A DNA stretch of 63,744 nt, the filler included, from Folioceros fuciformis (lineage: Eukaryota): assembly GCA_049999805.1 (NCBI GenBank). It is 11 parts of 11 records of this genome, joined end to end, with 100 filler letters (N's around TTAATTAATTAA, not from the genome) between each part and the next. Parts side by side here need not be neighbours in the genome. Positions count along the whole stretch, not along the records: positions 13,836 to 18,907 come from JBNGIO010001437.1; 10 more parts are not named here. One strand, written 5' to 3'. The notes under the pieces are model-generated. The model saw nothing but the letters and a program-made list of their open reading frames with translations, was not told the origin of the DNA and searched no databases. Made by a program: the position numbers and the translations under genes. Positions within the stretch are counted from its first letter, which is position 1, and every line of letters starts with the position of its first letter. Shown here piece by piece: positions 298 through 57,262 of this stretch.

Positions 298-2741
298 TCA
301 ATGTGTTAGCAACCGTGCAACACTCAGACAACTAAGAGCCAAGGATGAGCCCACCACAACTCCAAAAATGCTGCTCTTCACATCCATTGCCAAGGCTCGT
401 CGCAGAAGATTCCCTCCAAAAGCAGAATACAAACCCCCACAAGCTAAGATCATCCAATGATCAAGACCATCGTGGTCCATCCCAGCGAAAACCGCAAAAA
501 CAGCTGCCACTGGACCCGTGCATCCAGTCAACGTTACAATAAGTAGAGCAAACTGCCAGCTCGTAGTGGCACTGTACACTACTATAGCCACCGTTGCACC
601 CCTGGGAAGACCATTGAATGAGGCTGAAAGTAGCAGGTCCATATCCAGACCAGATGTTCTGAGGCTAGCTATTCCAAATAGCAGTCCATCCACAAGGGCA
701 TGAAAGGCTACCGTTGTTGACACCAGAAGAGCTTGCGTGGCTAGAGGTGATATCTTACCCGAGCCAAAACGCAACACCTCCCTCTTTTCACTTCTGGATT
801 CTCCCCTGCAAGAAGCAATAGCTTCCAGAACCCAAAAAACTGCACATCCAGAGCAGAGCCAAGCTATAACCAGAGGGACGCCAGATTGGCCACGCAGCAA
901 TAATTCTGCTGGGCTCCATGCTGCCACAACAAAGGCAGCCCCTGATCCAAGTCCTGGAAGAACAATGGGCGACATTCTCACCCAGCTTAACAATAGTATG
1001 CTAAAAGCACCTCCGATAAAAGGTCCCAACACAAGAAGCAAAGACGCCACTACAGCCCATCCATGTTCCCTGCTGATGCAAATGCAAGAGATCAGACAAC
1101 ACGTTGATACAACATTGTGCGAACAGCAGGATAGGGCATACTGCGGTGCTGCATGGCATAGTCCTTACTTTGGCATCTGATCATAGCCGACAAGTAGCGC
1201 ACTCAAGATCTCCATTAGTGCAACAGACGCCGTTGCAGCAGATCCTACATGGGAAGCATTTGCTTCCTACACAGAAGTCCTGGTCATCAGCAGGCACCCA
1301 AGACAACCTTACACAACCAAATCAGGAACACCAAGAAGACGCTAAGTTAGAACAACCACCTTCAAGCTAGCAGGGATAACTTCAGCAAAGACCATCCAAA
1401 TCATGCAGCCAGCTGCAAAACCAAGGCAGAATGGCAAGAGCTTGTGGAAGGCCTCTGCACATAAGAATGCTGGAACAGCCACTAGCGGCTGCAGTAAACA
1501 ATTTAGACACACCAATTAGCCGAGCACACCAAACTCTCGTGTCCTCTACAACTACTAAGAGAAGAGCAGCAACGGGTGTGGGGGGTTGGTTTGGTTGCTG
1601 ATGATCATTCCTGGTTCGCACCAACGTTCTGCAGCAATTTCCTTCACGTTGCTGATATGTGAGGCCTCAGAAACCACTGCTGACGGTGTTTTCAGATAAT
1701 CCCTTATGAGAACGGGTGAAGCAACATGCAGAAGCACTGGTAACCATCTCTGACCATCTTTTACACGTGTAAAATAGCACGAGAACTGACCTGTGGTAGG
1801 GATGTGAATATGCTCCAGATCAATGCTTTGCGAGCAGAGAGTCCTCGTGATGCCAGAACCATGCTTACAGCCAAACCCTCCGGGATATTGTGCACTGCAA
1901 TCGCAAGAGTGACCATCAGGCCCTGCCGAAGGCCATTAGGTCCTGCGAAGGACACTCCAACACCGGAACCCTCGCCAAACGAGTGCAGAGTCATAATTCC
2001 AACAACCAATACAACTTTCCTTGCATCGACTGCTTTGAGGTCAACAATCCTCATATCCTCGTAACCCTCCAACACCTGCAGAAAAAAGCACAAAGAAGTT
2101 AACCCCTCGCCACCTGTATGTGCGTCTAGAGGTTGGAGGTGAAACGGAGGAGATACACGCTGTGTAGATAATCTTGCTTCACCGTAAACCGTGAAACAAA
2201 CCTTTTGGCAGCACAGAATGAAGAGTCCACCCAGTAGAATCCCGAGCACGACCCAGGTTCCACCACCATACTTCTGCCCTTCCTGTATGAGATCAAAACT
2301 GGCAGCAGTCATCACCCCCGACGCAATTCCATTGCAAATACCCGCCCAGTGCGTCCGTAGCTCCATAAAGAAGAGAGGAAGCGCGCCAAGACCCGTTGCA
2401 GCTGCCATAGCCAAAGTGAGTAATGCAACCGTGAGAACGGGTACTTTTCTTGTTGTCGGCTTTCCTGTCAATTCTGTAGATCCTGTTAGGCCGCTCGGGG
2501 CACGCGTGACTTCTCCCATAGCTAATCGAAGGCCCGGGTCAGCGAGTCCCAGGCGATACAAGTCATCTTGAGACGTTGAAATCTGCCCCTTTCTTAACTG
2601 TGCGCCTCTCAGAAGATAATTGGCATGCATAGACTGTACAGGAGCTACCATATCAACCAGCACAACGACAATGCCGAAAAACAGAAGAGACATCTGCAAG
2701 GTGCAGCTCGTTCGCGTCCCATGAGCCATGATGAAAGACAA
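298..2741 (-). CDS. ZIP-family metal (zinc) transporter, At3g08650-like; exons approx 2741-2202, 2075-1791, 1488-1360, 1266-1169, 1069-298
   Basis: Motifs TLHSFGEGSGVGVSF, IAVHNIPEGLAVS and PLVAVPAFLCAEAF; GT-AG introns join the ORF pieces in frame; duplicated ZIP-like second half. Confidence 0.9.
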
Positions 2742-3593
2742 GCATCAGGTCGAGGCCGTAAACGATCGCCGATAGGGGTACTTCCTTCAAGCAAGAACAT
2801 GAGGACAGCTTTGAGTGTGAGGTCTGGGTGACGTGGGGAAGAAGTAGCAACCTACGAATGTATGTAGACTAAATCCTAGTAGCATCTAACGGATGTTTTT
2901 TTCTACCCACAAATCTAGTTCTGGACAGGTTAAAATGAAGTGAATTTCAGAAGTGCCAGCAGACCGCCGCGTCCGATCGAATGCTCCATTCCCGCAAATT
3001 GTTCGGGGTGCGCAGCCTGCGGAATGCTTGGTTGCTTTGGGCCATTCCGTCGGCTCGCGTAGCCTGATCCCCCATGTCGGCGTTATGGTTCCTTTCAGGC
3101 CGCTAACGTCACCCCATGACTGGGTTGCCTTCGGGAGTGAAAGGTGAAACGACGCAGAAGGGGAGTTGCATGCGCAGCAACTTCAGCTTACACATTCCAA
3201 TTGCTGCCTTTTGCCCTGCGGGCTGGCTGCATTGTGCCGGGATGATGGGTCATTACGCCCGCGTTGATGGACCGTATCCAGTGTTCCTTCCATTCCCTCA
3301 TACGGGCTGTCTTAACAAGTTTTATGATATCTCGTACATCCGCAGCTTTACAAGTGTGGCGCGTGCCTCTGGTCGGATGTCTGCCTGAGATAGAAGAGGA
3401 CCGCAGCACTTATTGAAAGTTTGTCGTAGCTGACATCATCAAGGAGAATACGAGTGTTAAGTCTGCATGAGCAGGATTTGTCACGTATGCATCATTTTGT
3501 CATGAAGCTGTGTGGAGTAGGTGGAGCCAGGTGAAAATCCTTCTCGCGGACGGGTGTCTGGTGTGGGGACCGACACCATAAAGCAAAGAGAAG

Positions 3594-11015: not shown

Positions 11016-11496
11016 CATTAAACACTACATGATGGTGCTGCAGCTCTATTGTAAGAGTGAAGCGTTGCTTCCTTTAGTCACCACAAAATCTCCTCGTCCT
11101 GCATCCACACTTCTCAGAGTTGTAACTTGGCTTCTCTAATCCTAGATCAGGTCACATGATCTTGCACACTGCGCACACGCACACCTCAACCGGATTCCAA
11201 CAAGAGAATGCTCCCTCAAGAAAAAGCCTATTCCCAAAAAGCAAGAGAATATAAGCTTACAGCTGCAACAGACACCAATAAGCTAGGCTTTTATGCTTGC
11301 TACCTCAGACCTACTGCAGCCACATCCACACACCTAGTTGTGTGTCTATCTATTTGACTATATATTATATTATATTTTCTAATAATCTCCACTGAATATT
11401 TTTTAATTATTATTATACCATTTATTAGCATCACTTAATTATTAACTAATTAAATTTTGCATGCATCTAAGCGACAACACATAATCATGCTTGACA
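11016..11496 (-). mobile_element. LTR of a second element interrupting the Copia gag; second copy at 59631-60183
   Basis: Minus-strand start TGTCAAGCATG at 11496; long near-identity with 59631-60183. Confidence 0.7.
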
Positions 11497-12474
11497 CCTT
11501 TGCTAACATCTTAGAGCTAGCCTCCTCCCATGTCATAGTGTCTGGGGCTATCAGAAAATCTATGAACCCTGAACAGGCTTTGGGCATAGAACGATATAAA
11601 AACATCTTCTGTATGTCTTCTTGGATAGCAAAGTGCTCGTTAGCCGACGCTAGCGCTGTAAACAATTCGTGAAGGGTGTCGATGTGCTTTTGCAAATCGT
11701 CTCTGTCTGAATACTTCAATGTCACCACACGACAAAACAAGTGAAATAGTTCACCTACTCCCTTCTGGCCATATTTCTCATTGAGAAGATTCCAAATGTA
11801 CTCCATACCTTTGTCTAATTCTCCAACCTTCAACTGCACTGCCGTAGAGAGATTCGTATATAGGAGAGCTATACCGTTATGGTCCCTCCGCATCCACTCT
11901 CTCTGTGCTCGCCCCTCATCTTCGGGTTTCGGCTCTTTGCCCTCGGCAAATCCGTACGCATCCTCGGCCATCAGCAAAAATTTCATGGATCTTTTCCATA
12001 CATGGAACTCTGTTCCACCAAACACTCGCGGCCTCAAGGTCGTGGCGGTTACTGAGCCCCTTGCCATGGCAACTTCGTCCTCTCTTATCAAGTCTCGCAA
12101 TCAATGAACCATGATACCATGTAAGAAACAACTCAAACACAACAAGGCGTGGGCAACACGCAGGATCAACACAGTAAGCAGACACAAGTAGTGACAATGG
12201 ATGGTACACAAAATAGCACAACACGCAGGATCAACACAGTAAGCAGACACAAGTAGTGACAATGGATGGCACACAAAATAGCACCACTGACTTAGGCCGC
12301 TTAGGTGCTTAACTGGGCTCCACAATACCACACAATATGGTGCACAAGGTGCTCTATATACATAGGCCTTTGGGGGGAAAATATCAAGAAGGTAAGCCCT
12401 AGTCTCAATAGTGCAATATCCTAGTATATTCCTAATATGATTCGAGTAAGTTGCAGAGGATTGAATTTGTAACA
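11497..12474 (-). mobile_element. Ty1/Copia 5' end: LTR 12120-12474, PBS ~12106-12119, truncated gag
   Basis: LTR TGTTACA...TTACA with TATATA; PBS-like TGGTATCATGGTTC; gag N-terminus FGGTEFHVWKRSMKFLL (DUF4219/UBN2-like); 65-bp tandem duplication ~12153-12284. Confidence 0.8.
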
Positions 12475-13042: not shown

Positions 13043-13735
13043 CTAAGAAAGGGTAAAAAGGGCGCCCTTCAGTTTCACACCTTTTTCAGTGTCCTTCCCC
13101 TCGGGCACAATGGTGATCAGGAGCCTGGACGGTTTCTTGATGCCTAGCAGCTCTAAATTGGTAGAAACATCGAAGCTCACATTCACCCGGCGGTATTGGC
13201 CGACGTCACCGCCGATCTTACCCTCCGGAATGTTGTTGTAAGAGCCCACGAACTGAGGGATGGATTTGGGCGTACTGGCGTCTGCGCTTGGTAAGTTGAT
13301 GAAGACGGAGAAAGCCAATGACCCTTCTAGAGGTACCAACACTTCCTCCAGCGTCAGAGTTTTCAAAAGATCTTCGAAATCCAACTCCTTGAGCTCCGCT
13401 GGAACGGGCTCCGGACGCACCCGGACGGTAAAGGGCTTGTCTTCAGTGTCAGTATCCTTGTCCCCGCGCGATGCTCTGGAACCGAACTCACTGAAATCTT
13501 CAGGATTTCCCTGCGGCTTCGGGGTCTTGCGCAGCTTCTCCACAGCGCCCTTGGGGTCCTTGACGTAGTCCTTGATCAATGCCGCTCCTGCGTCCGCGTC
13601 TCCGAGCCCGTTGGCGACGTTCAGCACCGACCCGTAGTTGAGCCAGTCCTGGTCCTCCCGCACGACGGGGTAGTCATACCGCAGACTGTTCCTGGTGTCC
13701 AGCGTATCCCGCACAGTGATCTTCACCAGCTCCTT
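13043..13735 (-). CDS. PPO: Polyphenol oxidase C-terminal part (5' truncated by contig end)
   Basis: ITVRDTLDT..LRYDY...DWL (PPO1_DWL) and FSVFIN...FVGSYNNIP...RLLITIVP (PPO1_KFDV-like). Confidence 0.85.
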   Translation of the reverse strand, partial: KELVKITVRDTLDTRNSLRYDYPVVREDQDWLNYGSVLNVANGLGDADAGAALIKDYVKDPKGAVEKLRKTPKPQGNPEDFSEFGSRASRGDKDTDTEDKPFTVRVRPEPVPAELKELDFEDLLKTLTLEEVLVPLEGSLAFSVFINLPSADASTPKSIPQFVGSYNNIPEGKIGGDVGQYRRVNVSFDVSTNLELLGIKKPSRLLITIVPEGKDTEKGVKLKGALFTLS

Positions 13736-13836
13736 NNNNNNNNNNNNNNNNNNNNNNNNNNNNNNNNNNNNNNNNNNNNTTAATTAATTAANNNNNNNNN
13801 NNNNNNNNNNNNNNNNNNNNNNNNNNNNNNNNNNNT

Positions 13837-14010
13837 TCCAAGACTCCCCGTCGCGAGCGCGAGTCGTGGTGGAGAAAGTATGCAGACGATGTGCAACGAA
13901 GAGTGCGAGCTGCAGATCAAGAGAACTTGGCCACCAATGGATCCAAGAGCGCCTCTACCACTGAGCCTGGCAAGAGGTCACCCGGCGTCAGGCGAAATTC
14001 TAGAGGGTAG
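13837..14010 (+). CDS. Possible 3' end of an unidentified gene at contig start
   Basis: Open frame from the contig edge (SKTPRRERESWWRKYADD...RNSRG*). Confidence 0.25.
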   Translation, partial: SKTPRRERESWWRKYADDVQRRVRAADQENLATNGSKSASTTEPGKRSPGVRRNSRG

Positions 14011-14300
14011 GTGGCAATAGGAGCTGTTTATGTATCACCTACACTGGCGTCCATCGTCATTCTGTTAGCTTGCCGCGATAAATGTATTTCACCTAGGTAT
14101 TGCTTGAAGACTGTGGGCCGGAATATAAGCTGAGGTTGGAACCCACGCTTTACTTGACCGGCTCGCTCCTTGACCGGACTTTCGATGGTACTCATATGAC
14201 GACATTTGAGCGTTGTTCTTCGTAGGTCCACATGTCTACCCTAAGGTACCTACCTCCATTCCCCGTGTCGTGACTTGAGGATTGAGAAAGCTCGCTCTGG

Positions 14301-16924
14301 ATGTCCGAGTGCGAGCGGAGAAGGGCAGCGTGTCATGAGGTTGTCACGAACGGCGATGGCGTCGACGCGCTGCCGAAATTTCCGGTTGCGGAGCTGGAGA
14401 GTGTCGGCTTGAAGGCCAACCACGACAATATGGACCTGGCGCGCGGAGTCGGAGCCGAAGGCGGTAGCGGAGCAGGCAGGCCTGTGGTGGACAGCAATCG
14501 GGGATTTCCTCTGGACAAAATGTCTTTGGCGGAGCTGAAGGCACACGTCGAGACCAGGCTCAAGTCCGGAATCAGATTCAGCCACATTGCGGCCGGCTTG
14601 CGCGTGCATCGCAACACCCTGCGAAGGTATATGATGAAAGATGCCAGCTGGGGCGGAGTGTATGACAAGTCCCCGCTCACGGATGTGTTGGATCAACTCC
14701 GGGAGGTGGTTCCGTTGGAGGATAATGGCTCGTGCTGGGGTATTAGGAAGTGCCAAGCGGCGCTCCGGGCCACCAATCACAGGGTGTCCCGGCGCAAGGT
14801 CCGCGCTGCTCTCAATTCCCTCGACTCCGCTGCCCTGCAATCGCGCAGGGTGAAGCGCAAGGATGACTCCTCCCACTGTGAGTGGTGGCTTAGGGCCCCT
14901 CTTCGGGTTTTCTGTATGTGTTGTCTTGTGTCGCATTGATCACGATTCTGATAGTTTGTTAGGCTTCTGAAGGCGAGGGTGGGAGCGAAACTTTGGACGA
15001 AGGAAGAAGCAACTCTTGCACTGCGCCTGAAACAGGTGCCACGGAAAGTCTCTGTACTCTGGAATTCGACGCGCAGAGGCATTTTCTCCGGGAGGAACAA
15101 GAATCTGGGCGTGCCAGGAACGGTGATCAGGGGGCCTTGTGTTCCATCTTAGCAGTTGTTCCTGTCGGAGGGACAGGATTTGGACCGGGGGACGTCACTC
15201 AGCCTGTCGACCACGCGCAGGGGATCGTCGATAGCAGGATAACCGTATCTTGCAGTGGGAATGATGGGAGGGAGAGCATCTGCACAAGCACCCTGCCGGA
15301 AAACGATCTGCCGAGCGGAATCAACCGCGGACTATCACGCACGGTGGCACCGGTCAGGAGTGCTTTGTTTCGGGATGACGGGGGAGCAGACGAGGCCATG
15401 CTCCTCTCTGGAACTTGTGAAAGGCATACAGAAGGAGCTGTCGGTAGCGATCCGCAAGGTCGACAGGAGGCCTGTCTAAATCCCAGATGTTCAGAACAAT
15501 CTGGCAACAAGGATGTAGGTTTTCTCGGGGGCAGTGGCAATGCAAGCCTCTTGTTCCCTCCCAGCGTAGGAGATGTCGTCTGCATGTCAGCAGGTTGTGG
15601 ATACACCGATGCTCCAATTCTAAGATGCGGGCGGAGCTCCATAAACTTGAACAGCCGTGCCTGTGGTCTCGTAGATGCAGGTATTCAAGGGGATGATGCT
15701 TCTGCTTCAAAGGAAGTAGGGCCTCGTAATGCCGGGAACGGTGCTGGCACTGTAAGGAAAGGGTGGTTCCCTTACGCAGATGAGTTCAAGCTGAATGAGG
15801 AGGAAGGCTCACTTACGAGCAAAGCAATTCTAGAAAAGCTAGACTCGTTTCTTGTTGCAGGCCGTAGGAAGAGAATTGAAAGCGTTGTAGGTAACCGCAC
15901 GTATACCATCTGCATTGTGCTGGAAGGTTTGCTTGACCCCAGCCATGTGTCGTCGGTGTTCAAGTCTGCTGATGCGTTTGGAATCCAATCAGTGCACATG
16001 ATCTCCAGCTGCCAAAAGAACAGGTGCAGTTGCTTCTGATTACTTTTGTATGTAATATCAATATTGGAGAAGAGTAAGAGGGACTCCCCATAGATGGTTC
16101 TGTGGTTCTGCTGCTTTCATTGCTATATCGTTCTGGTATATGGTCTAACTTAAACGCTTCATTCAGGTCCAAGAAGCTGCGGAAATCTGTTGATAATGTA
16201 GAGAAGTGGTTAGATGTTGAAACGTGGGACTCTATCAGGGAGTGTATTACAACGCTTCGGACTCGCGGATATCGAATAGCGGTGACACATGTCGCAGCAG
16301 ACTCAGTTCAGCACCTACTTTCGTTTTAATCTGTTTGGAGTTGGAATTCTTCTATTTAAGTCCTAGTTAAGGACTCTGCTCCAATGTCGAACGCCTTTTC
16401 ATTGTTGACATGAGTTTCTTACGTGCGAAAGTTATCTTGCAGATTTCAATACATGACATGGACTGGTCTATACCCACAGCCGTAATTCTAGGCAACGAAA
16501 GCAGGTAGGTAGACCTGATGGCCTCTCCTTTCAAACTTTTGGAAGTTCATCATTAAAATAACTGTTAAAAGTTTACCATTAAGATGGTCGTTATTTATAC
16601 GCAGGGGCCCAAGTCATGAGGCAATACTGTCCTCAGACATACGCTGCAGCATACCCATGGTCGGGATGGAAGATGCATTGAGTGTGTCTGTTATCGCTGG
16701 GATAGTTATGCAACACTCAGTTCGAAGCCGACTTACAAAATTCGTGAGTGCCTTTCAGCTTTGTACTTCGGAAGTACACCATACAAAACCTCTGAGCGAT
16801 GTTGCCGCGTGCCGTGTATGAGTGAAATTTTTCTGTGGACTTCTTCCAGGGCGTTCAAGGAGATCTGATGCAGAGAGAGCAACAAATACTGGCGGCAGAA
16901 TTTTGTATGAGGCACGGCCGATAG
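14301..16924 (+). CDS. SpoU/TrmH-family (SPOUT) RNA methyltransferase-like protein, At5g15390-like, with long N-terminal extension; SPOUT exons ..16023, 16167-16305, 16443-16504, 16605-16743, 16850-16924
   Basis: RIESVVGNRTYTICIVLEGL, EKWLDVE, DMDWSIPTAVILGNESRG, CSIPMVGM, GDL..EQQILAAEF.MRH; GT-AG introns in frame. The join to ORF 14301 is inferred. Confidence 0.8.
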
Positions 16925-17451
16925 TACATCTAATTCGCACGTACGTGCGTGTGTGTATATTCTTGTTCAACATCAAACACCTCGCTGTTCAAATTCGTTG
17001 CCACATGATATTACCACTCAAACAGTATACACCGGGACTCCCACGATGTAACCCCTTGCCCAAATGTTCTGATCCCGGTAGCCACGGTCACAGAGCCGAG
17101 AACATAGGGTGCGTTGTCCTCATCGCTGGTACGCACTAGCAGACACAAGCACTGTTTTACAGGTACATGTGCATAACGAATATGCGTAGCTCAATAATGG
17201 AATAAGCTTAACCTCATATACTTCCCCTGCGGGCCCCTGCCCAACCGACAACGGAATCGCTCCCTCCTTGAAAATCGGAAGTTTCATTTAACAGACCCGC
17301 AAATATCCTTTGACTAGAGTCCCTGACGCCCCGCTAGCGCTCAATTGACGAGACGATCCACTGGACGCCCTCTATCCCCAAATGCCATGATAGAGGACGT
17401 CTATCCAGTCCACACTATGGCATAAATCCTCCCTCCGACCAAGTAACAAGT

Positions 17452-18907
17452 TCAACCATTAGTCATCAAGTCAGAAATGAGCTTGGAGTGAGGACGGTCC
17501 CATGCACAAGGCACTGTCAACTCTGCTCCAAGTTGTCTGTCCAATTCAAGTGCTGCTTCCATAGCATCATATACAAGCTCGTCTCCATCTTCTGCAAGAA
17601 GAGCAGTGTCCTTCAGATCATCAGTTGTCCCCTCCGCATGAAGATTCAGGGAGTCAGGTGATCCCTTACAGTACTGAGCATAGTGGACACTTGCTTCACT
17701 ATCTTCGAGACTTTCTGCGGCAAGCATGTTGGAATACTGTTTATGGTTTCCTGAAACAATCATGTATATGTCTTCTACGTAAGGAAAAGCAGGGGACGAC
17801 AACCAATCAAATTGTGGAGCCGAACGATCCATAGTGGTCTTTTGCAGAGCAGTCTGCGTAGACTCCGGAACCAGCTGTGTGCTAGGATCTTCAAGCTTAC
17901 GCTGCCCAAACAGCCAGTTGGGACTTTTTAGCTGGACTTCTGCAGCATCAGTCCCAGAAACTCCAGCTGGAGTACCGGGCTTCACCTCAACGTCACTGAA
18001 CATCCGCACGTTTTTTATTGTGCCACTTGCTGGCAAAAGCTTGTCAAAGGAGGTGAGTTTAGGCCGGTGGAAGTCCTCTTCGTGAGCTGACAACGTGGGT
18101 ATCCCGCGAAGGGGATTATGCTGCAAAGTCACCCGTTGCTGTGCAGCATTCCCAGTTTCATCCCGTGAAGAGTCATCCTGACAACCTCCAACATGAAGGT
18201 AGTAGTCAGAATCTAGCTCCCAAAGGGCTGGTTTCCCTTCTTGTGGTTGAAAAAGACCTAGAAAAAGATTCATCGCATCCTGCTTTTCACCATCAGTGTA
18301 CGCATTGCTGTAATATCGTTTGATGGACTTGAGAAACTCCTGAGACTGAGTAGTGGCCTTCCACTTCCCCTGTCTCTCGGGAAAGACAGTGTTGTGAGCC
18401 TCAGATCCGCCATACTGGAGAGCTAGAACATCACCCATATTTCGATACATGTCCATCAATGCATCAGCAACCTCACTGTCAGGGTCCACTTTTTGCACGT
18501 GAGACAACTGCAACGCATAGAGCTGGCGGCCAAGGGCAGCCAAACCATATGCATACTGTGCAACATTTGTACGATCTAGGCAGTCGATGCAATTTGTCCG
18601 CAAAACCCCACTCTGGAGCCTGGGTTCCCTTCCTTCAGGCAAACGTTCTTCCTCTTGATTCCCATAAGTCTTAGAAGTTGAGCGAGTGACGCTGCTGCTG
18701 CTGCTGCTAGGCAAGCCCACAGTATCCAACGCAGAAGAAGAAGAACGTCCAAAGTCCGTGAATGGCATCGTAGATCTTTGCAACGCGGCATCCTTGGCTA
18801 GAGCTGTCAAGCGCTGATGCTGCATCCGCTGCCTGGACGCGGACAGCTTGCCCGTGTAGAAAATTCCTGTCAAATCAAGAGCCTCACCTGCAACAGCATC
18901 CAGGACA
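17452..18907 (-). CDS. SAC-domain phosphoinositide phosphatase (FIG4/SAC1-5 type), 5' truncated
   Basis: Catalytic LRTNCIDCLDRTNVAQ, GDVLALQYGGSEAHN, KRYYSNAYTDGEKQDAMNLFLG; open up to the contig edge. Confidence 0.93.
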
Positions 18908-19984: not shown

Positions 19985-22900
19985 ATGGCCGCTTCTGCCT
20001 GGCAGGCACGGGCCGCACAGTCGTTGGGCATGCAAACGACGCTGGCAGATATGCAGCACGGGAACGGGAGCAGTGCAGGACAAACGCCGGTGCATGGGCA
20101 TCTGCGCCCTCAGTTTGGTGCGTCATCCGTCACCTTCACAGAGACACCAGCTACATCTTGCAGAGATTTCAGTGACATGAGCACAAATTCCCTATCATCA
20201 CCTAATCAGCAGTCTCTGGTTGCTGGCGCATCATTGTCCCCTGGTTCTGCTTCTCATGCGTCTCAGGGGCCAGGACAACCTGCGCTACCACCTGGTCAGC
20301 CGATTGCGGCTCCTGCCCAAGCGCAGAGAGCTTCCGGGCAGCCATCAATGCCCCCGGGCCAGGCCACCCCTGGGTCTGGGCACCCGGCGTCAGTAAGGCT
20401 CTCACCTGCTGCTCCTGCTGCTGCTGCTTTGATGATGAGGGCAGGGCAGGGCAGGGCAGGCTAGGCCAGGCCAGGGCTCACTGGACTCCACGCCGAAAAG
20501 GATACTAATATGTGATTTTACGGTTGCAGGGATTCTCGGCGGCGACTGTGCAGCCGGGTATGTACAGTCGTCCAAACCAAGCTGGTTCATATCTTCCGCC
20601 ATCCGGAGCTTTTTTGGGAAATAGATGGTCTACTCTGCAGGCAATTCAACCAGGGGCTACTTCTGCAGCCGTAGGTGCCCGGACCTCCGCAGACACTGTG
20701 ATAGCGGGATCAGGTTCGGCATCCTTGCCCCCTACAGCTCCGCTGGGTGTTGGAATAACTCAGTCCTCGGGAGCTGCTTCTGGACCGTCTCCGTCTCAGT
20801 CCTCTTTTCCGAATTATCCCCCTGCCAATCCCCTAGGTCCTCCTCACATTCCTCCGTGGATATTGAATCAGCAGCCGGCAGGGCAACCACAGCCTTATCT
20901 CCCGTTCGGACCCTACCCAGGATACCAGATGCCTTTCAATAGGCCTTCACGGCAACCAGGTCCATACCAAGAAAGTCCTTCAAGTTTACTTCCTTCCCAG
21001 GGTAAACTATCTCATGCAGGGGTGCCCCTTAATTGCCCCAATGCTTGGGGGAGCCAACCGGCTCCTGGTACGACAACCTCGACTTCTGTCCAGCATGGAC
21101 GAAAGGATGTCACGACTGTTTCTTCTGTCACTGCCTGTGCACCTGGCCTGGCTTCTCAACTCCCATCAAGCTCTGCAGCTCCAAGTCCGGATGAACACAG
21201 TGATATCATTAATGACCTCAGCGCAGATGTAGAAAATGGCATATCTATCGAGCAGGTTTCCCCTGCAGGCAAGGATAGGTCTCTTGAAGCTCAGAGTCTT
21301 GAGGAGGAATGGTCTGCACACAGGACAGCAGATGGTAGAGTTTATTATTACAACTCAGTCTCAGGGGATTCTACGTATGAAAAACCGGCAGGCTTCACGG
21401 GGGAGGTACGTGTGGTTTGCATTCATCTTAACCACTTCCTGCACTGTCCTCATCTTGGCAAGCTCTTGTATGTATTGTTGATTTTTTCTTCTTCTAATGG
21501 TTTCCGTATGAAACTTTCTAGCTACTTTGAAACTTATTCATGGACTATGTGCAGGTGGATAAAGTAACAGCCCAGCCTACGCCAGTGTCATGGTGATTAA
21601 TCGCACTTCGTTTTTTCTCTGGCCTGGATTCGGAAGTGCTAATTTTTCAAACAATTTTTGTCAAGAAAGTAGGGCTTGATTTGACCGCTCATCTTTGGCA
21701 AGAGAAAGCAAGGGACAGTAACATGGATGTGAATCTGTTGGAGTTGTAGGGAAGATGTCAGCCATGAAGGTTGTAGATTGTATTCCTCTCCCATGGTTGG
21801 CATGTTTCTGTGTCTTTAAGCCTGAGTGTTGTTCGTAGCGTTTTCAAAACAGGCGTCTTGGTGACCATTCTGCTGTGAATACACAGCCTTTTTGAGTGTT
21901 GAACTGATGGTGGTCATATGCCCGTTGGTGCGCTTTCACGTACCCTGCTGAACTTTCTGTAATGGGGCTCTCCATTTGTTTGCAGGGAGCGGATAGCAGG
22001 GACAGACTGGGCGCTTGTCAACACAAATGACTCAAAGAAGTACTACTTTAATACCAGAAGTCAGGTGTGCTTCCAAGAACGCTGTGAATAATATGGACAC
22101 TGATGGTTTTTTCACCTTCCAGTTCATCTGCATAGTTCTGTATGGGCGAAGGATTCTCCCCTTCTTGTTGTTAGAGTGGTTCTTGTAGGTCAACACCATC
22201 TATTCTGAAACTTAGATGGTTCATCCCTAGGTTACTAGTTGGCAGATACCACAAGAGGTAGCACAGTTGCGAAAAGATCAAGCGGAAGAAGTTTCCTCAA
22301 GGCGGGCCTCTGAAGCAGGGGTGGCTTTGGTGGCTGCATCTGAGAAGAACAATGTATCCTTTAGTCTCAACGTGCCCGCAGCTGCATCAGGAGGGCGTGA
22401 GGCTGTTGGACACAAAGGAGTTGTAACAGCCATGGGATCATCAGCTCTTGACCTTATTAAGAAAAAACTACAAGACGTAGGATCTCCTGTTGCGATGAAT
22501 CCCATAGCAGGCACAAATGGTACTTCGGCGCCAGAGGTCCACAGTTCAAAAGCACTAGTGGTGGAATCTGGCAAAGAGAAGTCAGCATCATCAGATAGTT
22601 CTTCTGACAGTGATGACGAGGACCCTGGTCCAACAAAGGAGGAACGCATTGTACAATTCAAGGTGCGCATGCTGCCAAGACAACACTGAAAATTTCTGAT
22701 GGGATACTGAATCTCTGGAAAGGTGCCTGTTTCCATAGTGTGCTCCTTGTGGCAACACCATAATGACCCTGATAAGTTGGGTTTGCTTCCATAGGACATG
22801 CTCAAAGAAAAAGGGGTTGCACCCTTTTCGAAGTGGGAGAAGGAGCTGCCGAAAATAATTTTTGATGTTCGTTTCAAGGTATTACTATGTTCTAGGGTGT

Positions 22901-28455: not shown

Positions 28456-28555
28456 NNNNNNNNNNNNNNNNNNNNNNNNNNNNNNNNNNNNNNNNNNNNT
28501 TAATTAATTAANNNNNNNNNNNNNNNNNNNNNNNNNNNNNNNNNNNNNNNNNNNN

Positions 28556-29899
28556 GGGCAGCTGAAGGCCGTGACCGGGGTCGGGCTGGTGTCGGATGTG
28601 TTTGACGAGGAGAAGCTGGAGAGTTTGCGAGGATCTACTGCCATTGGGCATGTGAGGTATGCCACGGCAGGGGGATCCTTGCCGGAGAACGTGCAGCCGT
28701 TCTTGCGTGTGTGCAGGTTTGGTGCGGTAGCTGTGGCGCACAATGGGAACCTCGTGAATGGGAAGGAATTGCGGGACAGGTTGGAGGAAGCCGGCTCGAT
28801 TTTCAAGAGCTCGTCCGACACCGAGGTGGTGCTGCATCTCATGGCCAAGTCCTCGCAGCAGCATTTCCTGGCACGGGTGGTGGAATCATGCGAGCAGCTG
28901 GAAGGCGCGTATTGCATGTTGTTCTTGACGGAGGACCAGCTGGTTGCGGTGCGAGATCCTTACGGCTTCCGGCCTTTGGTGATGGGAAGAGACGAGAGTG
29001 GAGCTGTGTATTTTGCGTCAGAGACATGCGCGCTGGACATGATCGGAGCTACGTACGAGAGGGAGGTGGATCCGGGAGAAGTGGTGGTGGTGGACAAGGA
29101 TGGAGTTAGCTCGTCTTACCTCACAGCGAAGCGGGAGCGGAAGTCTTGCGTTTTCGAGCTCATTTACTTCTCGTCATCGGTGTCCAGGGTGTTCGGCAGA
29201 TCCGTCTACCAGGCTAGACTAGGGTTTGGACGGATTTTGGCAGAGGAGAGTCCAGTGGAGTGTGATGTGGTGATTGCGGTTCCCGACTCAGGTGTGGCTG
29301 CAGCCATCGGGTACGCCAGCAAGGCGGGAGTCCCCTTCCAGCAGGGGCTGACGCGTTCGCATTACGTGGGCAGGACTTTCATCGAGCCAACCCCGCGGCT
29401 CAGAGACCTGGCAGTGAGGATGAAGCTCTCTCCGGTGAAGGAGGTCTTGGCAGGGAAGAGAGTGGTTGTGGTGGACGACTCCGTTGTGAGAGGCACAACT
29501 TCAAGTAAGATTGTGAGGATGATCAGAGAGGCTGGGGCATCTGAGGTGCACATGAGGATTGCAAGTCCGCCAGTTATCGCATCGTGCTATTATGGGGTGG
29601 ATACCCCGAATCGTGAAGAGCTCATCTCTTACAGGCTCAATATCGAGGACACCAGGAAACAAATAGGGGCGGACAGCTTGGCCTTCTTGCCCCTGCACAG
29701 GCTGAAGGATCACCTTGGCGATGAACATTCTTCTTTCTGCTTTGCCTGCTTTTCTGGCGACTACCCTGTGCTCACAACAGCTATGGTTGAGAGGGAAGCT
29801 CGTTACAAGTCTGCCACGGTGGTTGGGGAACATGATCATGAGTCTCATGTTCCCCTAAGACTGCCGGCTTATCGGATCTTGGCAGCTTCGACCTCTTAA
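28556..29899 (+). CDS. purF: Amidophosphoribosyltransferase (glutamine PRPP amidotransferase), 5' truncated
   Basis: IGHVRYATAG, AHNGNLVN, SDTEV, RDPYGFRPL, VPDSG, VVVDDSVVRGTT, CYYGVDTP, C-terminal CFACFSGDYP. Confidence 0.96.
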   Translation, partial: GQLKAVTGVGLVSDVFDEEKLESLRGSTAIGHVRYATAGGSLPENVQPFLRVCRFGAVAVAHNGNLVNGKELRDRLEEAGSIFKSSSDTEVVLHLMAKSSQQHFLARVVESCEQLEGAYCMLFLTEDQLVAVRDPYGFRPLVMGRDESGAVYFASETCALDMIGATYEREVDPGEVVVVDKDGVSSSYLTAKRERKSCVFELIYFSSSVSRVFGRSVYQARLGFGRILAEESPVECDVVIAVPDSGVAAAIGYASKAGVPFQQGLTRSHYVGRTFIEPTPRLRDLAVRMKLSPVKEVLAGKRVVVVDDSVVRGTTSSKIVRMIREAGASEVHMRIASPPVIASCYYGVDTPNREELISYRLNIEDTRKQIGADSLAFLPLHRLKDHLGDEHSSFCFACFSGDYPVLTTAMVEREARYKSATVVGEHDHESHVPLRLPAYRILAASTS

Positions 29900-42189: not shown

Positions 42190-45100
42190 AGAGGAGGTTG
42201 TTCAAGCCTTAAAATCCTTGCCAAGGAATAAGTCGCCAGGACATGACGGCATCCCGCCAAAATTCCTTCTCTAGGGCTAGGAATTTATTGAACCACTTTT
42301 TATGGAGGCTGTGCATTTGATGTGGGAGGAAGTTACTATGGGCAAGTGGTTTAACTTGGGAGTTATCTCCCTATTACCCAAGTAGGGTGCGAGCCTTTTG
42401 ATCTCTAATTGGTGGCCTATCACTCTACTTACCACAACGTACAAGGTTCTGGCAAAGGTACTCGCTAACAGAATCAAACCTTTCGTGGATGAATGCATAG
42501 AGGAGGAACAAAGGGGCTTCATACAAAATAGATGCATTTTGGACAATCTTCTGCTTTTGCGCAAAGCCAAGTTTAACGCCCTCACCCTGGGTAAGCCTGT
42601 TGTCTTTATCTCATTGGATTTTTACAAGGCGTACGACTCTGTAGAATGGCACTTTTTGTGGAGGTGCCTCCGGAGCTTTGGCTTCGGAAATAACTTCTGT
42701 CGGTGGGTGGGCATCTTATGCGAAGACACAAGAGCCAAGGTCGTTGTCAACGGGGCTTTCAAGGAGGGGTTTGCCATTTCCCACTCCGTACATCAAGGCT
42801 GCCCATTGGCACCCTTCCTGTTCATCATCGTTACTGATTTTCTTCTAAGGGTTGTTAAACAACACGTACAGATTGAAGGTCTGACCCTCCCAGACGGGTC
42901 CCAGCTACAGATATCAACCTTTGCGGATGATACGCTCGTTTTCTCCTCTGCCGCGAAGACGTTTTTTCAAGCTCTTCTTCATCAGGTATAGGTCTTTGGG
43001 ATTCTCTTTGGTTGGAAGGTAAATTGGAGCAAGACCTGAATGATGTGTACTAACCTGGAGGGGGAAGTTCTTGAATGCATCAAGCATATTAGCAGAGTCC
43101 AGGCTGGATCATCTCATAAGTATCTAGGTCTACCATTCCAGGAATCGGAGGAAAATGAAGCAATTGGCAAATTTGTATGCCTCAGGTTTATTCGGAAAGC
43201 CTCAAGCTTAATGCTCTTAGATCTTAATTAGCTGGTAGGCTGGTGGTGACTAACCATATCTTGTCGGCATCCCTGTGGTATTACCTTTTCTTATGGGCTC
43301 CCACGAGGATGGAGATTTAAAAGCTGTAACAGATGATTGCAAGTTTCGTATGGGGTAGGTCACCAGAGTTGGTAATGTCACCTCATAAAGTGGCGTGGAC
43401 TCATGTCATCCAACCTTTGACGCGTAGGGGGCCTGGGACTGGTCGACTCCTTGAGGAAGATGAAGGCCTTACATGCGCAATGGGTAGTTAAAGCTGGAGA
43501 CCCAACTCGCTACCCATGGAAAAGCCTTCTTAGGTAGATCCTCAAGTGTACGCAAGCGTTCCACAAAGAGGAAGGTCGCTAAACACCACGGAGTGCTCCC
43601 CTCTATTCAGATTCATTTGGAACAGTTACCTAGAAGTCAAGTTATTGCTTATGCTATCCTCTCCTACAAACACGAATGATGTCTTAGGCATCCCTCTACA
43701 AGGTTTTCAGAGGTTGTGGACACTAGATTTTATTTCCCATATTTTGTGTTCGCAAATCTTTGGGGCTACAGGTCGCCGAGGAGTGTACCAACTTGGACTC
43801 TTATGGAACAGAGCTGAGGGCTGCTGGAGAGAGGTGGAGGAGGTCCGAGAGACATTGTCAAGCCATGTTGATTAATTAGGGTATCTAATTAATCAAAGAG
43901 ATATAATTAGGCTAATCGTATGTAATTAGTCTAACTATATGATTAGGTAGATGAGGGATAGCCAGGTAGGGAACGTGTGACCCGTTTAGGGTTTAGAACC
44001 ATCATTGTGTGAAATGGTGGAGAGGTTTCGAGCGTGGGCGGCATGGCGACGATGAGGGAGAGGAGGACTGGGGGTAACGGCCAAGAGCAGCGTGACAGAC
44101 AAGTGCCGACCTTCTAGGCTCAGTCCCGCAATTGTTAGAAGTTCTCTCGTTGAGCCTAAGCCTGCGGTCAAGGTAGCTAGCCAAGGAACTGCTTGTGAAT
44201 CCACTGCTCAAAAATCAGAGTGAAAGCATTGATGGGTTGCATTGCGGTGTGAGCATGTGTGACTAACAACCTGAGCGTGCCACGCCGGGGCTAGGTGGAG
44301 AACTTACCACGACTCGCAAACCCAACCGCTGTGCTTGTAGGATTGAGATTTGGCTCACAAACCTCGGAGCTCAGGCAGGCAAGTTCACAAGTGTCGTGGT
44401 GCTCCGTCGCGGGCATCAGCACGACGTCAGTGGACGACAGCGCTGGACGGTGAGCTGAGTCACTCAGCTCAAGTGTCAGGGGAATTCCAGCAAGATGTGG
44501 TGTCCCATCGTGGGCATCGAGGTAGTGCCAAAGGAATCCCAGCAAGCTATAGTGTCCCATCGCGGGCATCGAGGTAGTGCCAGTGCTGGACAGTGAGCTG
44601 AGGCACTCAGCTCAAGCGCCAGAGGAATCCCAGCGAACCGTGGTGTCCCGTCATGGGCATCGGGGTAGAGCCAGTGCTGGACAGTGAGCTGAGGCACTCA
44701 ACTCAAGCACCAGATGAATCCCAGCAAGCTATGTGACCCATCGCGCATACCAGGGCAGCGTCGGTGCATGGAGGTACTGAGCAGCGGGTTGGTGGACAAC
44801 AGCGGATGGATGTGTGTGTGAGTGCTAGAAGCCGGGAGGGAGAGACTCAGTGAGCGCAAGCTGAGACTGTACATGGACTCGGACCGAACCGACTGTGGGG
44901 AAGCCGCTCACGGAGCTGAGGAGGTGACTGTACAATCTGTGATTTGTAGGTGAAGGACACCCAGGTGAGCCCGAACCTGTCCAGTCGTGAGCTGGAGCCG
45001 GGGATCACGACGCAGTGCCAGGATCATGACATTGTGCTTGGATTTCGATGGGGTGCTTGTCACACTATGCCTGGCTCGTGGCGTGGTGTCTGGATCGTGA

Positions 45101-54477: not shown

Positions 54478-54778
54478 ATGAGACCACGGATGCTGGCAAC
54501 AAGGAAAACGTCCGGACCCGTAAGCGCTTCCGCACGCCACATGTACAGTCAGACCGCTTTTGACAATCATGCATGGACCGTGTCCAGCACTACCCGCGTC
54601 ATGGTCTCTCACTCTCTCAAATGAGTAGTCTGACTGTACTGCGGAGGTAGCAGTGCCCATGAGTTCTCTCCTACCATGGCCATTCTCGTCTCCCGGTGCA
54701 ACAATCCTGGAACGCTCATCTTCCCGATGGCCTGTCAACTCGCCTCAGATGCGTGCTTGATGCTTGGTGCTGAGCTTG

Positions 54779-57262
54779 ATGTTTCATGTGGCAACGCAGA
54801 TGGGTGTGGACTCCATTGCCGCTGGTCCCGGGCTGTTAGCCCACAAGGGAGGCATCCCAGTCTCTCTAGGGGATTGTCCGGCTGCGCGACAAGAAAAGGG
54901 CTTCGATTCGTGGCAGAAGGTGGAGCTGCAGATGAGGGATCAGGCTGCTGCCCTGACCACATCCCACTGGAGCGTGCCGGATTCTCCCGCCAAGTCTGCA
55001 GCGTGGTCAGTGGGCATGACGGCCGAAACTGTGAGCAGGTTATGTCACCAGGGTCTGGAGATGGAGTCTGTCGTTGAGGCTCTGGGACTTTTGGTAGAGA
55101 AGGACTGTCCAACCTCCCAGTCTCTGTTTTATACGGTGCTCAAGAAGTGTGTGGCTCACAGGGATTTGGTTCTTGGCCGTAGGGTACACGCTCTGGCTGT
55201 GAAAGTGGGTTGTGAGTCGGACACTTTCTTGTGCAACCACATCATGAGGCTGTATACTGGCCATGGCAGGTTGCAAGACGCTATGGATGTGTTCCACATG
55301 GTTGCCACACCTGATGCCTTCTCCTGGTCTGCCATCATTTCTGCTCATGTTAAGGAGGGGCAAGATAAGCAGGCCATACAACTGTACCATCGGATGCGCA
55401 GGTCAGGTGTGAAGCCGGATGGCCATGTGTTTGTGGCAGCGCTTCAGGCTTGTGCCAGGGGACGAGACTTGGATACTGGGCAGCAGGTCCATGCTGATGT
55501 GTTGGCCAGTGGGTTGGAGACTAGTTTGTTTGTCTCCAGCTGCTTGGTGGACATGTATGCAAAGTGCGGCAGCTTGGAAGACGCCCAGAGAGTGTTTCAT
55601 GCCCTTCCTCGGAAGGACGTGGTGACTTGGAATGCTATGATAGCAGGATACTCCCAGCAGGGCAAGGGGAAGGAATCCCTTCGTCTCCACGAGGCTATGC
55701 AAGAAGAAGGCATTGTTGCACTTGATGCCGTCACAATTACGTGCCTTTTGCAGGCATGTGCAAGCGTGGGCACTGCAGCTCTGGAGAAGGGGAGGCAGCT
55801 TCATGCACGAATCAGAGAACAAGGACGTCCTTTGGCTGATGTGTTTGTAGCCAGCAGCTTGGTCAACATGTATGCCAAGTGCGGCAGCTTGGAGGAAGCC
55901 CGGGATGTGTTTGATGAACTCCGTCAGAAAAATGTGGTGACATGGAGTGCAATGATAGCAGGATATTCGCAGCATGGCATGGGGCTCGAAGCCCTTCGTC
56001 TCTACAAAGCCATGCAAGAAGACGGCATGATTGTACCCAATGCTGTCACATTTGTGTGCCTCCTACAGTCTTGTGCAACAGTGGGCACCCCAGCTTTGGA
56101 GACGGGCAAGGAGATTCACGCACAAATCACGGAACAAGGACTGCAAGCTGACGTGTTTCCAGGGGGCGCTCTGGTAAACATGTATGCAAAGTGCGGCAGC
56201 ATCCAGGATGCTCGGGCGGTGTTCGATGGACTTCCTCACAAAGATGTGGTGACGTGGACTGCTCTGATAGCAGGCTATTCCCAGCAGGGCATGAGTCTGG
56301 AAGCCTTGAATCTCTACAAGGCTATGGGTGGAGAGGGCATGGTTCCACCTGATGCTGTGACATTTGGATGCCTCCTGCAGGCCTGTGCGAGTGTGGCAGC
56401 CTTGCATCTGGGCAGGCAGCTTCATGCGCAGATCAAAGACGCAGGCCTTCAACTCGATGGCGCTATTGGCAACAGTTTGGTAAACATGTATGCAAAGTCA
56501 GGGAGCATGGCTGAAGCACAACATGTGTTTGATGCCATGCCTGAAAGAGATGTCGTCACCTGGAGTGCTCTGATCGCTGGCTACACACGTCAAGGAGCCA
56601 GTGAAGTAGTCTTTGACTTGTATCACCGAATGATACAAGCTGGCATTCAGCCGGCTGCCATCACGCTGCTCAGCGTACTAACAGTCTGCAGCCATGCGGG
56701 TCTAGTGCACAAGGGGCAAGAGTACTTCGAGTCCATGACCGGACAATACGGTATCACCCCAACTGTGGAGCACTACGCATGCATGGTGGATCTCCTAGGT
56801 CGAGCAGGCAGACTAGATGAATCACTAGCTCTGGTATGTGCCATGCCTGTACAGCCTAATGCTGCAGTTTGGCACGCTCTGTTGGGTGCCTGTCAAAAGT
56901 GGAACAACGTGGAGTTGGGATGCCGTGCTTTTGATGAAGCAATTAAGCTAGACAAGAAAGATGCTGCAGCATATGTGTTGATGTCCAATATATACACCGG
57001 TGCCCAGATGTGGAAGCAGGCACAGGAGATGCAGGTAAGGAGAACGGGGATCCAAGCATGGAAGCAACCAGGCCAGAGCTGGTGGACAGACACGGATGGC
57101 GTGGTGCATAGTTTTTTGGTCAGAGATCAGAAGCACCCCGAGAGTGGCGACATATACATCAAGTTGCAACAGCTTCTTTCCTCAATGAACAAAGCAGGAT
57201 CCTATGTTCCGCATCTGGACCCGTTCGAGGAGTTCCCTGAGGATTGGGGTTGCAGAAGCTAG
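54779..57262 (+). CDS. PLS-class PPR protein with E1/E2 and a truncated WW-type DYW start (E+); putative organellar RNA-editing factor
   Basis: Intronless; repeated LVNMYAKCGS..A..VFD / DVVTW.AMIAGY triplets; EHYACMVDLLGRAG; AAYVLMSNIY; KQPGQSWWTD; stop before HSE. Confidence 0.95.
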   Translation: MFHVATQMGVDSIAAGPGLLAHKGGIPVSLGDCPAARQEKGFDSWQKVELQMRDQAAALTTSHWSVPDSPAKSAAWSVGMTAETVSRLCHQGLEMESVVEALGLLVEKDCPTSQSLFYTVLKKCVAHRDLVLGRRVHALAVKVGCESDTFLCNHIMRLYTGHGRLQDAMDVFHMVATPDAFSWSAIISAHVKEGQDKQAIQLYHRMRRSGVKPDGHVFVAALQACARGRDLDTGQQVHADVLASGLETSLFVSSCLVDMYAKCGSLEDAQRVFHALPRKDVVTWNAMIAGYSQQGKGKESLRLHEAMQEEGIVALDAVTITCLLQACASVGTAALEKGRQLHARIREQGRPLADVFVASSLVNMYAKCGSLEEARDVFDELRQKNVVTWSAMIAGYSQHGMGLEALRLYKAMQEDGMIVPNAVTFVCLLQSCATVGTPALETGKEIHAQITEQGLQADVFPGGALVNMYAKCGSIQDARAVFDGLPHKDVVTWTALIAGYSQQGMSLEALNLYKAMGGEGMVPPDAVTFGCLLQACASVAALHLGRQLHAQIKDAGLQLDGAIGNSLVNMYAKSGSMAEAQHVFDAMPERDVVTWSALIAGYTRQGASEVVFDLYHRMIQAGIQPAAITLLSVLTVCSHAGLVHKGQEYFESMTGQYGITPTVEHYACMVDLLGRAGRLDESLALVCAMPVQPNAAVWHALLGACQKWNNVELGCRAFDEAIKLDKKDAAAYVLMSNIYTGAQMWKQAQEMQVRRTGIQAWKQPGQSWWTDTDGVVHSFLVRDQKHPESGDIYIKLQQLLSSMNKAGSYVPHLDPFEEFPEDWGCRS

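Follow-up and report, generated by a model that had tools for sequence, protein, structure and literature searches.

The window examined here is a 63,744-nucleotide stretch of DNA from Folioceros fuciformis (assembly GCA_049999805.1), in which 11 parts of 11 records are joined by runs of 100 filler letters; all positions count along the whole stretch. In the part from record JBNGIO010001437.1 (positions 13,836 to 18,907) lies, on the plus strand, a gene interrupted by five introns. Its predicted product begins with a helix-turn-helix (HTH) region of transposase type and ends with a SPOUT domain of the TrmH family. The gene structure and the transposon origin of its N-terminal part can be stated with high confidence. 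The overall view that we favour, and hold to be probable, is that a land plant here expresses a host-transposase fusion gene, whose product probably binds DNA and has a SPOUT domain with weakened catalysis. As to how such a fusion protein might act, our confidence is low.

The transcript and its reading frame

The exons were read from the public run X1. Of three runs, all from the same study, X1 was the only one that contained the stretch, with 0.80 of the words sampled. The kind of this run is a guess ('RNA?'), and no run containing the stretch is recorded as RNA. Contigs of X1 were placed on 13840-17400, where runs X2 and X3 gave none. A 2021-nt contig spans 14249-14877, 14973-16020, 16164-16305, 16443-16500 and 16601-16744 with no differing or extra letters. 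A further X1 joint connects 16743 to 16850, the letters between its two sides being not known, and the contig that starts at 16850 continues to at least 17400. All five skips are GT..AG-ended. Five canonical intron removals mark the X1 contig as a cDNA-derived sequence. Exon boundaries were placed on the sequence and the exons then joined by coordinates, with the following result.

14249..14300 (+): 5' leader, from the first base of the contig to the first ATG (X1 contig)
14301..14877 (+): coding part of exon 1, residues 1-192 and the first base of codon 193 (X1 contig)
14520..14858 (+): conserved transposase-derived module within exon 1, residues 74-186, two three-helix units (HMMER, profiles, AlphaFold2)
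14878..14972 (+): intron 1, 95 nt, GTGAGT...AG (X1 joint, boundaries read on the sequence)
14973-16023 (+): exon 2 (X1 contig, boundaries read on the sequence)
14973..15730 (+): first part of exon 2, acidic linker rich in Gly, Ser and Cys, residues 193-445
15731..16023 (+): last part of exon 2, start of the TrmH-like region and SPOUT motif 1 with His517 and Lys523 (blastp, alignments with solved enzymes)
16024..16166 (+): intron 2, 143 nt, GT..AG (X1)
16167..16305 (+): exon 3, SPOUT domain (X1)
16306..16442 (+): intron 3, 137 nt, GT..AG (X1)
16443..16504 (+): exon 4, SPOUT motif 2, GNE with Glu608 (X1)
16505..16604 (+): intron 4, 100 nt, GT..AG (X1)
16605..16743 (+): exon 5, SPOUT motif 3, ALSVSV (X1)
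16744..16849 (+): intron 5, 106 nt, GT..AG (joint 16743>16850)
16850..16924 (+): coding end of exon 6, residues 657-680 and the TAG stop (X1)

The spliced exons form a single frame of 680 codons which starts at the first ATG (14301), and codon 193 is split by intron 1. The transposase-derived domain is joined in frame to the host exons by splicing at 14877>14973, between GT and AG and across a skip of exactly 95 nt. An earlier note on this DNA, made from the sequence alone, had supposed that the two open reading frames (ORFs) are one gene and not separate transcripts; the single spliced contig with its in-frame joint bears this out. Two in-frame splice routes had been offered. Both are in frame by arithmetic, yet only 14877>14973 is seen in X1, and no joint 14849>14963 occurs among the X1 contigs.

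Upstream of ATG 14301 an in-frame stop at 14283-14285 closes the frame, so that the stop-to-stop ORF runs from 14286 to 14939, and 14301 is the single ATG between 14249 and 14320. From this ATG the frame encodes the HTH-like peptides quoted previously, including FSHIAAGLRVHRNTLRRYM and WGIRKCQAALRATNHRVSRRKVRAALNSLDSAALQSRR. The second ORF, formerly 'ORF 14993', extends from stop to stop over 14963..16039. It has indeed no ATG near its start: the earliest in frame, at 15398, encodes residue 335 after splicing. In exon 1 all 192 codons are free of stops, compared with 5 and 6 stops in the other frames, and 0.0016 of 20,000 mononucleotide shuffles are stop-free. Over the linker stretch 14975-15637 the 221 codons likewise contain 0 stops, the other frames 6 and 7, and 5e-5 of the shuffles are stop-free. 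Both frames are open beyond chance.

The predicted product has four parts: an unconserved N-terminus (residues 1-73), a basic module of two HTH units (74-186), an acidic linker (193-445) and the TrmH-like SPOUT domain (446-680).

Could the locus give rise to two products? The main SPOUT protein would then be made from Met335 (ATG 15398) via a downstream start, and the HTH exon would belong to a minority isoform or constitute a long upstream frame. Such an arrangement would agree with the similarity to a fern SpoU protein, which starts only at residue 446, and a start at Met335 would yield 346 aa, compared with 320 aa of the fern protein; moreover, contigs cannot reveal starts or isoform proportions. 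However, the frame of exon 2 is open for 141 codons upstream of Met335 and is in frame with exon 1 via the observed junction. Further, X1 showed no joint or loose end which would indicate another 5' end. On this evidence two separate products appear improbable, and the fusion gene is the better description of the locus.

Two other contigs of X1 were noted. One of 165 nt (16715-16879) keeps intron 5 unspliced, which may reflect a retained intron, pre-mRNA or carry-over of DNA. A deeper one of 1002 nt, covering window positions 13840-14157 and running off the left end of the segment on which the contigs were placed, stops 91 nt before 14249. It may stand for a neighbouring gene that ends or starts very near, or be part of one longer RNA.

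The N-terminal module and its transposase relatives

The N-terminal HTH region is collinear with transposases of the IS3/IS481 type. The NCBIfam profile transpos_IS3 matches residues 82-188 on profile positions 92-193 of 369 (E 1.9e-5, 24.1 bits), i.e., collinear with the region just ahead of the catalytic core. The profile transpos_IS481 gives E 0.034 for the module, and Pfam HTH_21 matches residues 140-169 with E 0.0095. A match to an HTH or transposase profile thus exists; all three matches, that of transpos_IS481 included, score under the curated cut-offs for whole proteins, as is expected for a fragment.

Among 1.84 billion representative proteins HMMER returned 15 matches at E<=1e-3, covering query residues of about 71-190. 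The protein P0006 (1613 aa), in which ten repeats align on query residues 114-140 only, was dropped as a repeat protein and the other 14 were kept. All 14 are short (102-311 aa). In 7 of them the alignment continues directly into the motif [YF]..v..PM..W[HSA].D[CS], and longer members of three more clusters carry the same motif, so that 10 of the 14 clusters reach PM.LW[HA].D[CS]. The relatives P0003, P0011, P0014 and P0015 end before this core-start motif. One relative, P0004, is a hornwort transcript. Certain relatives are present in identical form on 15 and 19 metagenome contigs, as one would expect of repeated elements. Within the family 3 of 15 members match transpos_IS3 (best 1.4e-7), 2 of 15 transpos_IS481 (best 1.1e-7) and 4 of 15 HTH_21. 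In the alignment of the relatives the module keeps every nearly invariant family position. The protein atlas contributed leads only, i.e., clusters of short eukaryotic hypothetical proteins, some with HTH families, at a score of 0.92.

What does the core-start motif signify? In the accessible supplementary alignment of Kojima and Bao (2023; PMC10045372) 13 of 14 IS3EU cores start with W[HS].D, and all 5 untruncated GingerRoot cores from Selaginella (SL_GR) start with LW[HA]MDSYDKL; two AD_GR rows of this alignment are cut before the motif. Cores of Ginger2 and of bacterial IS3 start differently there. According to the available portion of the same paper, the first catalytic Asp in these families lies 100-300 residues from the N-terminus, and IS3EU was merged with GingerRoot. 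GingerRoot DDE reads from 18 Bryopsida and 3 Lycopodiopsida are reported in the accessible part of PMC6839031. We conclude with high confidence that the module derives from a transposase of the GingerRoot/IS3EU type, specifically from the region preceding the DDE core. The likeness to IS3-like transposases claimed in the earlier note stands; the specific reference to those of fungi and animals does not, as the nearest kin are GingerRoot-like sequences from plants or from the environment.

Two observations concern the relatives as such. In P0008, P0009, P0010, P0012, P0016, P0021, P0022, P0026 and P0028, which are genomic or metagenomic gene calls, the likeness is lost directly after W[H].D[CV], which points to an intron conserved at this place, just past the first catalytic Asp, in the transposase family. 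The hornwort transcript P0004 reads on as DSWGKL, comparable to DSYDKL of GingerRoot. A scan with the single protein P0009 listed 29 metagenome loci; these aligned only within query residues 22-135 (E 6e-6 to 1e-3) and were not used.

The fold of the module agrees with its assignment as HTH. AlphaFold2, run with a 15-sequence alignment, gave block means of the predicted local distance difference test (pLDDT) of 91-96 over residues 71-140 and of 81-95 over 141-180. Six helices make up the model, in two units of three, and the parts ahead of residue 60 and beyond residue 190 are unstructured. Residues 74-192 have a pI of 10.7. Foldseek searches of the PDB with the module returned nothing at E<=0.001. 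The first rows were the DNA-binding domains of IstA transposase, Pax5 and Tc3 (E 0.27-0.6), and the DNA-binding domain of SETMAR (7s03) was a weak row. With VIA-align Z reached at most 6.4, rated middling, to generic winged-helix and HTH DNA binders.

One may ask whether the module simply belongs to an old HTH family of the host, its likeness to IS3 reflecting nothing but a shared HTH fold. The Pfam and NCBIfam scores under the cut-offs would agree with this, as would the generic character of the structural matches, with Z of 6.4 or less and no Foldseek match at E<=0.001. Further, no full-length transposase with such an N-terminus was retrieved. Against it stand the 10 of 14 clusters which continue into PM.LW[HA].D[CS], the opening of the DDE core in IS3EU and in Selaginella GingerRoot, the collinearity of the IS3 profile match with the region before the core, and the identical relatives on up to 19 contigs. 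An old host family is a very improbable source, and derivation from a transposase is the explanation we adopt.

What is missing from a complete element

The homology stops near residue 186, six residues ahead of the donor site. A DDE core does not follow, as had been surmised: none of the 23 other ORFs of at least 60 aa in 14031-17658 matches any Pfam family at E<=0.01, and P0001 and P0002 gave no rve-type match. A hidden Markov model (HMM) built from the tails of 11 relatives aligns with residues 171-186 only and did not find the core-start motif in the read-through of intron 1. A relic of the DDE core in intron 1 had come under consideration when MAFFT placed the read-through peptide under PM.LWH.DC; it was rejected, since the segment HMM did not align it.

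Terminal repeats flanking exon 1 were not found. In 13836-15800 there were three short imperfect inverted pairs, and the run of N at about 13784-13835 limits the left side. The hallmark of IS3EU/GingerRoot elements, according to the available text of PMC10045372, is TA..TA terminal inverted repeats together with a 6-bp target site duplication. In the window neither TA..TA termini nor a 6-bp target duplication are present, and it holds a single copy, for which tblastn with 16 family proteins gave matches at 14490-14873 only. The missing core, the missing terminal repeats and the single copy in the window characterize the sequence as a fragment of an element, not as an element.

The SPOUT partner and the linker

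The C-terminal partner has three SpoU motifs in order and an overall similarity to TrmH. In blastp a fern SpoU protein (P0019, 320 aa) shows 48% identity over 163 residues, beginning at residue 446. P0019 itself matches the TrmH profile at 2.1e-20, and its best solved relatives are the TrmH enzymes 1zjr, 1v2x and 7edc. TrmH NF008295 is the best profile (E 3e-5 for exon 2 alone). In phmmer 1v2x gave E 8.9e-4 for motif 1 and 1.9e-3 for motif 3. Pfam SpoU_methylase reaches 14.2 bits for exon 2 alone against a cut-off of 29.7 bits, because the domain is split over five exons. Exon 3 alone gave nothing meaningful against solved structures.

The catalytic residues have changed. In motif 1 His517 and Lys523 are located where all four aligned solved enzymes (1v2x, 7edc, 2i6d, 1gz0) have Asn and Arg. 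Motif 3 reads ALSVSV, with Ala634 and Ser636, versus SLNVSV in all four solved enzymes aligned with it. The fern protein keeps the Asn and the Arg of motif 1. In the numbering of Thermus TrmH these replacements are N35H, R41K, S150A and N152S. Glu124 seems to persist as Glu608, an equivalence which was reached by ungapped extension across an exon border. In the accessible sections of the review by Hori (PMC5372735) Asn35, Arg41, Glu124, Ser150 and Asn152 are described as essential, their substitution almost abolishing TrmH activity. TrmH is dimeric by the same account and has its catalytic centre in Arg41, which acts from the partner subunit (PMC5372735). Four of five essential residues thus are replaced. 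They are not assembly errors relative to X1, because the contig has no differing letter. With four of the five replaced, the SPOUT partner is probably not an ordinary methyltransferase, and to judge from these residues the domain is probably weakened catalytically. The former designation as a SPOUT methyltransferase holds as far as the TrmH-type fold is concerned; ordinary methyltransferase activity is improbable.

The linker (residues 193-445) is acidic (pI 4.5), rich in Gly and Ser and contains 13 Cys, among them two C-x4-C pairs (360/365 and 396/401). It probably is disordered. A single-sequence AlphaFold2 model of the exon-2 ORF had a mean pLDDT of 33.8, which is uninformative on disorder versus a decayed DDE fold.

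Constraint, origin and possible function

P0003, encoded on a contig of 13.9 kb, is the closest relative of the module, with 103 of 129 residues identical (80%). The similarity sets in a few residues ahead of Met74 and is not significant further upstream. Like the fusion gene, P0003 is without the core-start motif. The resemblance would fit a shared truncated exon under constraint, and it is the one hint at the domestication that the earlier note had proposed.

The G+C content at third codon positions (GC3) is 0.756 in the HTH part (14520-14876), 0.52 in the linker and 0.49 in the SPOUT part (15638-16021), all of which are small samples. The contrast would fit parts of different origin.

A more sober interpretation must be weighed at this point, namely that of a young, neutral chimeric transcript. 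Promoter and first exon would come from a transposon remnant, the remainder being a TrmH paralogue in decay, and the frame would be open through recency, without any function. The replacement of four of five essential TrmH residues would suit this proposal. So would the 253-residue linker and residues 1-73, which are without relatives, the failure to find a fused protein elsewhere, and the GC3 values, 0.756 for the HTH and 0.49 for the SPOUT portion, which point to parts of different origin. It is difficult to reconcile, however, with 680 stop-free codons, given that 5e-5 of the shuffles leave the 221 linker codons open, and with five introns that are all removed at canonical sites. The HTH module, furthermore, keeps its nearly invariant positions, has a confident fold and shares 80% identity with P0003, with a sharp onset at Met74. 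We consider a neutral chimera unlikely, to a lesser degree than two separate products, and prefer the expressed fusion gene.

Several points weigh against the fusion gene as we describe it. DNA binding, dimerisation and target sites are all properties which we infer. The transcript comes from one run of one study, and that this run is RNA is a guess. With contigs of short reads one cannot prove that the same molecules carry both the 5' HTH part and the 3' SPOUT exons, and such contigs map neither the transcription start nor the isoform proportions; 14249 is the start of a contig only. The context of ATG 14301 is weak, with T at -3. Met74 (ATG 14520) has A at -3, and Met44 (ATG 14430) has A at -3 and G at +4. 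Because conservation sets in at Met74 and ATG 14301 has T at -3, Met74 or Met44 could be the true start. The profile scores of the module stay below the curated cut-offs, with 24.1 versus 160 bits for transpos_IS3 and 16.6 versus 28.1 bits for HTH_21. Replaced catalytic residues fit a decaying gene equally well as a new function. The linker had no relatives in the search with the exon-2 ORF and no family match. The only match of this search was the fern SpoU protein; none came from the organism of P0003. A longer protein bearing the module was found neither in searches with the alignment of the relatives or with P0001, which is weak evidence, nor among the 15 HMMER matches, with the exception of the spurious repeat protein. 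Since no longer module-bearing protein was found, no fused ortholog is known. The evidence leans slightly against a wide conservation of the fusion.

How might the fusion gene have originated? A DNA transposon of the GingerRoot/IS3EU type would have landed 5' of a gene of the TrmH family (SpoU, SPOUT). The first coding exon of the element would have encoded the bipartite HTH DNA-binding region ahead of the DDE core. Via the GTGAGT donor at 14878 this exon would have become spliced to the acceptor at 14972 in the upstream region of the host gene, and the rest of the element, DDE core and ends, would have decayed away. In the present-day product the HTH module may bind DNA, most plausibly sequences like the ends of the parent transposon family. 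The SPOUT domain, whose fold works as a dimer, may supply dimerisation, perhaps RNA binding, instead of the normal Gm18-type 2'-O-methylation. We suggest a role in dimerisation rather than in methylation because a Lys takes the place of the catalytic Arg and three further essential residues have been replaced. The fusion protein would then be a regulator that binds DNA bivalently, in the manner of a truncated-transposase repressor.

One can take this a step further. A lineage of seedless land plants might keep a DNA-binding module of GingerRoot/IS3EU tethered to a TrmH-derived pseudo-methyltransferase, with the SPOUT knot as a platform for dimerisation or RNA binding, and use the whole as a nuclear, sequence-specific regulator. 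This extended proposal is speculative and we regard it as doubtful. If true, the regulator might repress elements of the GingerRoot type or recruit RNA to their relics. It would also be the first co-opted IS3EU/GingerRoot gene and, in plants, the first SPOUT domain reused outside RNA modification.

Neighbouring features of the window

Downstream, at 17455-18906 (-), a frame of 484 aa is convergent with the fusion gene. It has no Pfam match at E<=0.001; a C..DCLDRTN stretch is reminiscent of SAC-domain phosphatases. As the X1 contig from 16850 reaches at least 17400, the 3' ends of the fusion gene and of this frame may overlap. On the other side an ORF at 13043..13783 (-) contains the polyphenol-oxidase domains PPO1_DWL (middle) and PPO1_KFDV (C-terminal) and meets the run of N at about 13784-13835; the tyrosinase part is missing from the window. 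Elsewhere the window holds the following features.

301-2744 (-): exons of a ZIP transporter
11453-12100 (-), 42386-42988 (+) and 62352-63368 (+): retroelement remnants (copia-type gag, RVT_1 and a sub-threshold RVT_2)
20509-21564 (+): ORF with a WW domain
28508-29896 (+): amidophosphoribosyltransferase-like ORF with GATase_7 and Pribosyltran
54761-57259 (+): uninterrupted pentatricopeptide repeat (PPR) protein of 833 aa with E and E+ motifs, the kind tied to organellar RNA editing factors

Comparison with known systems

New regulators are known to arise when host genes capture DNA-binding exons of transposases, a route described so far mainly in vertebrates. To these the present locus adds a case from plants, with direct evidence of splicing. 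It shares with the host-transposase fusion genes of Cosby et al. (bioRxiv 10.1101/2020.05.07.082677) a transposase domain, in this instance the DNA-binding one, which is spliced to host exons and results in a new architecture. In the available part of that report the cases are from vertebrates; the present gene has a land plant as host, a donor of the IS3EU/GingerRoot type and SPOUT as partner, and its function and maintenance by selection are putative.

With IS3EU/GingerRoot transposons, as described in the accessible parts of PMC10045372 and PMC6839031, the N-terminal region has in common its resemblance to the part before the first catalytic Asp, and its relatives carry LW[HA].D[SC]. The superfamily is reported from mosses and lycophytes (PMC6839031, accessible part). 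The locus differs from these transposons in that DDE core, TA..TA termini, 6-bp target duplication and a second copy in the window are all lacking. Our search of the papers accessible to us, judged by the titles listed, found no co-opted IS3EU/GingerRoot derivative, and the string 'domesticat' is absent from the available text of the GingerRoot paper (PMC6839031).

A SPOUT RNA-methyltransferase fold with changed catalytic residues is an unusual partner. With the TrmH (SpoU) tRNA Gm18 2'-O-methyltransferases of Thermus thermophilus (1v2x) and Aquifex (1zjr) it has three collinear SPOUT motifs in common. Yet His, Lys, Ala and Ser replace Asn35, Arg41, Ser150 and Asn152, and an extension of 445 residues with the HTH module is placed ahead. 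The questions which arise are evident: has an HTH taken from a transposon retained its recognition of the parent's ends, and can SPOUT be reused as a non-catalytic module? If the gene is neutral, it still is a clean snapshot of early exon capture.

In SETMAR a SET methyltransferase is fused to a mariner transposase; the transposase is C-terminal and its catalytic domain is kept, and the partner is a protein lysine methyltransferase. SETMAR and the fusion gene share a methyltransferase-fold domain and a transposase HTH DNA-binding domain in one spliced product. In contrast to SETMAR, the transposase part here is N-terminal and consists of the DNA-binding part only, and the partner has the fold of a TrmH-like RNA 2'-O-methyltransferase with altered catalytic residues.

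OrfA of the IS3 family and the KP repressor of the P element are DNA-binding N-terminal parts of transposases without a catalytic core, and they are encoded by the elements. It is this likeness from which we have taken the proposed mode of action as a regulator. The difference is that here the corresponding part sits in a host gene, and dimerisation would come from the SPOUT domain.

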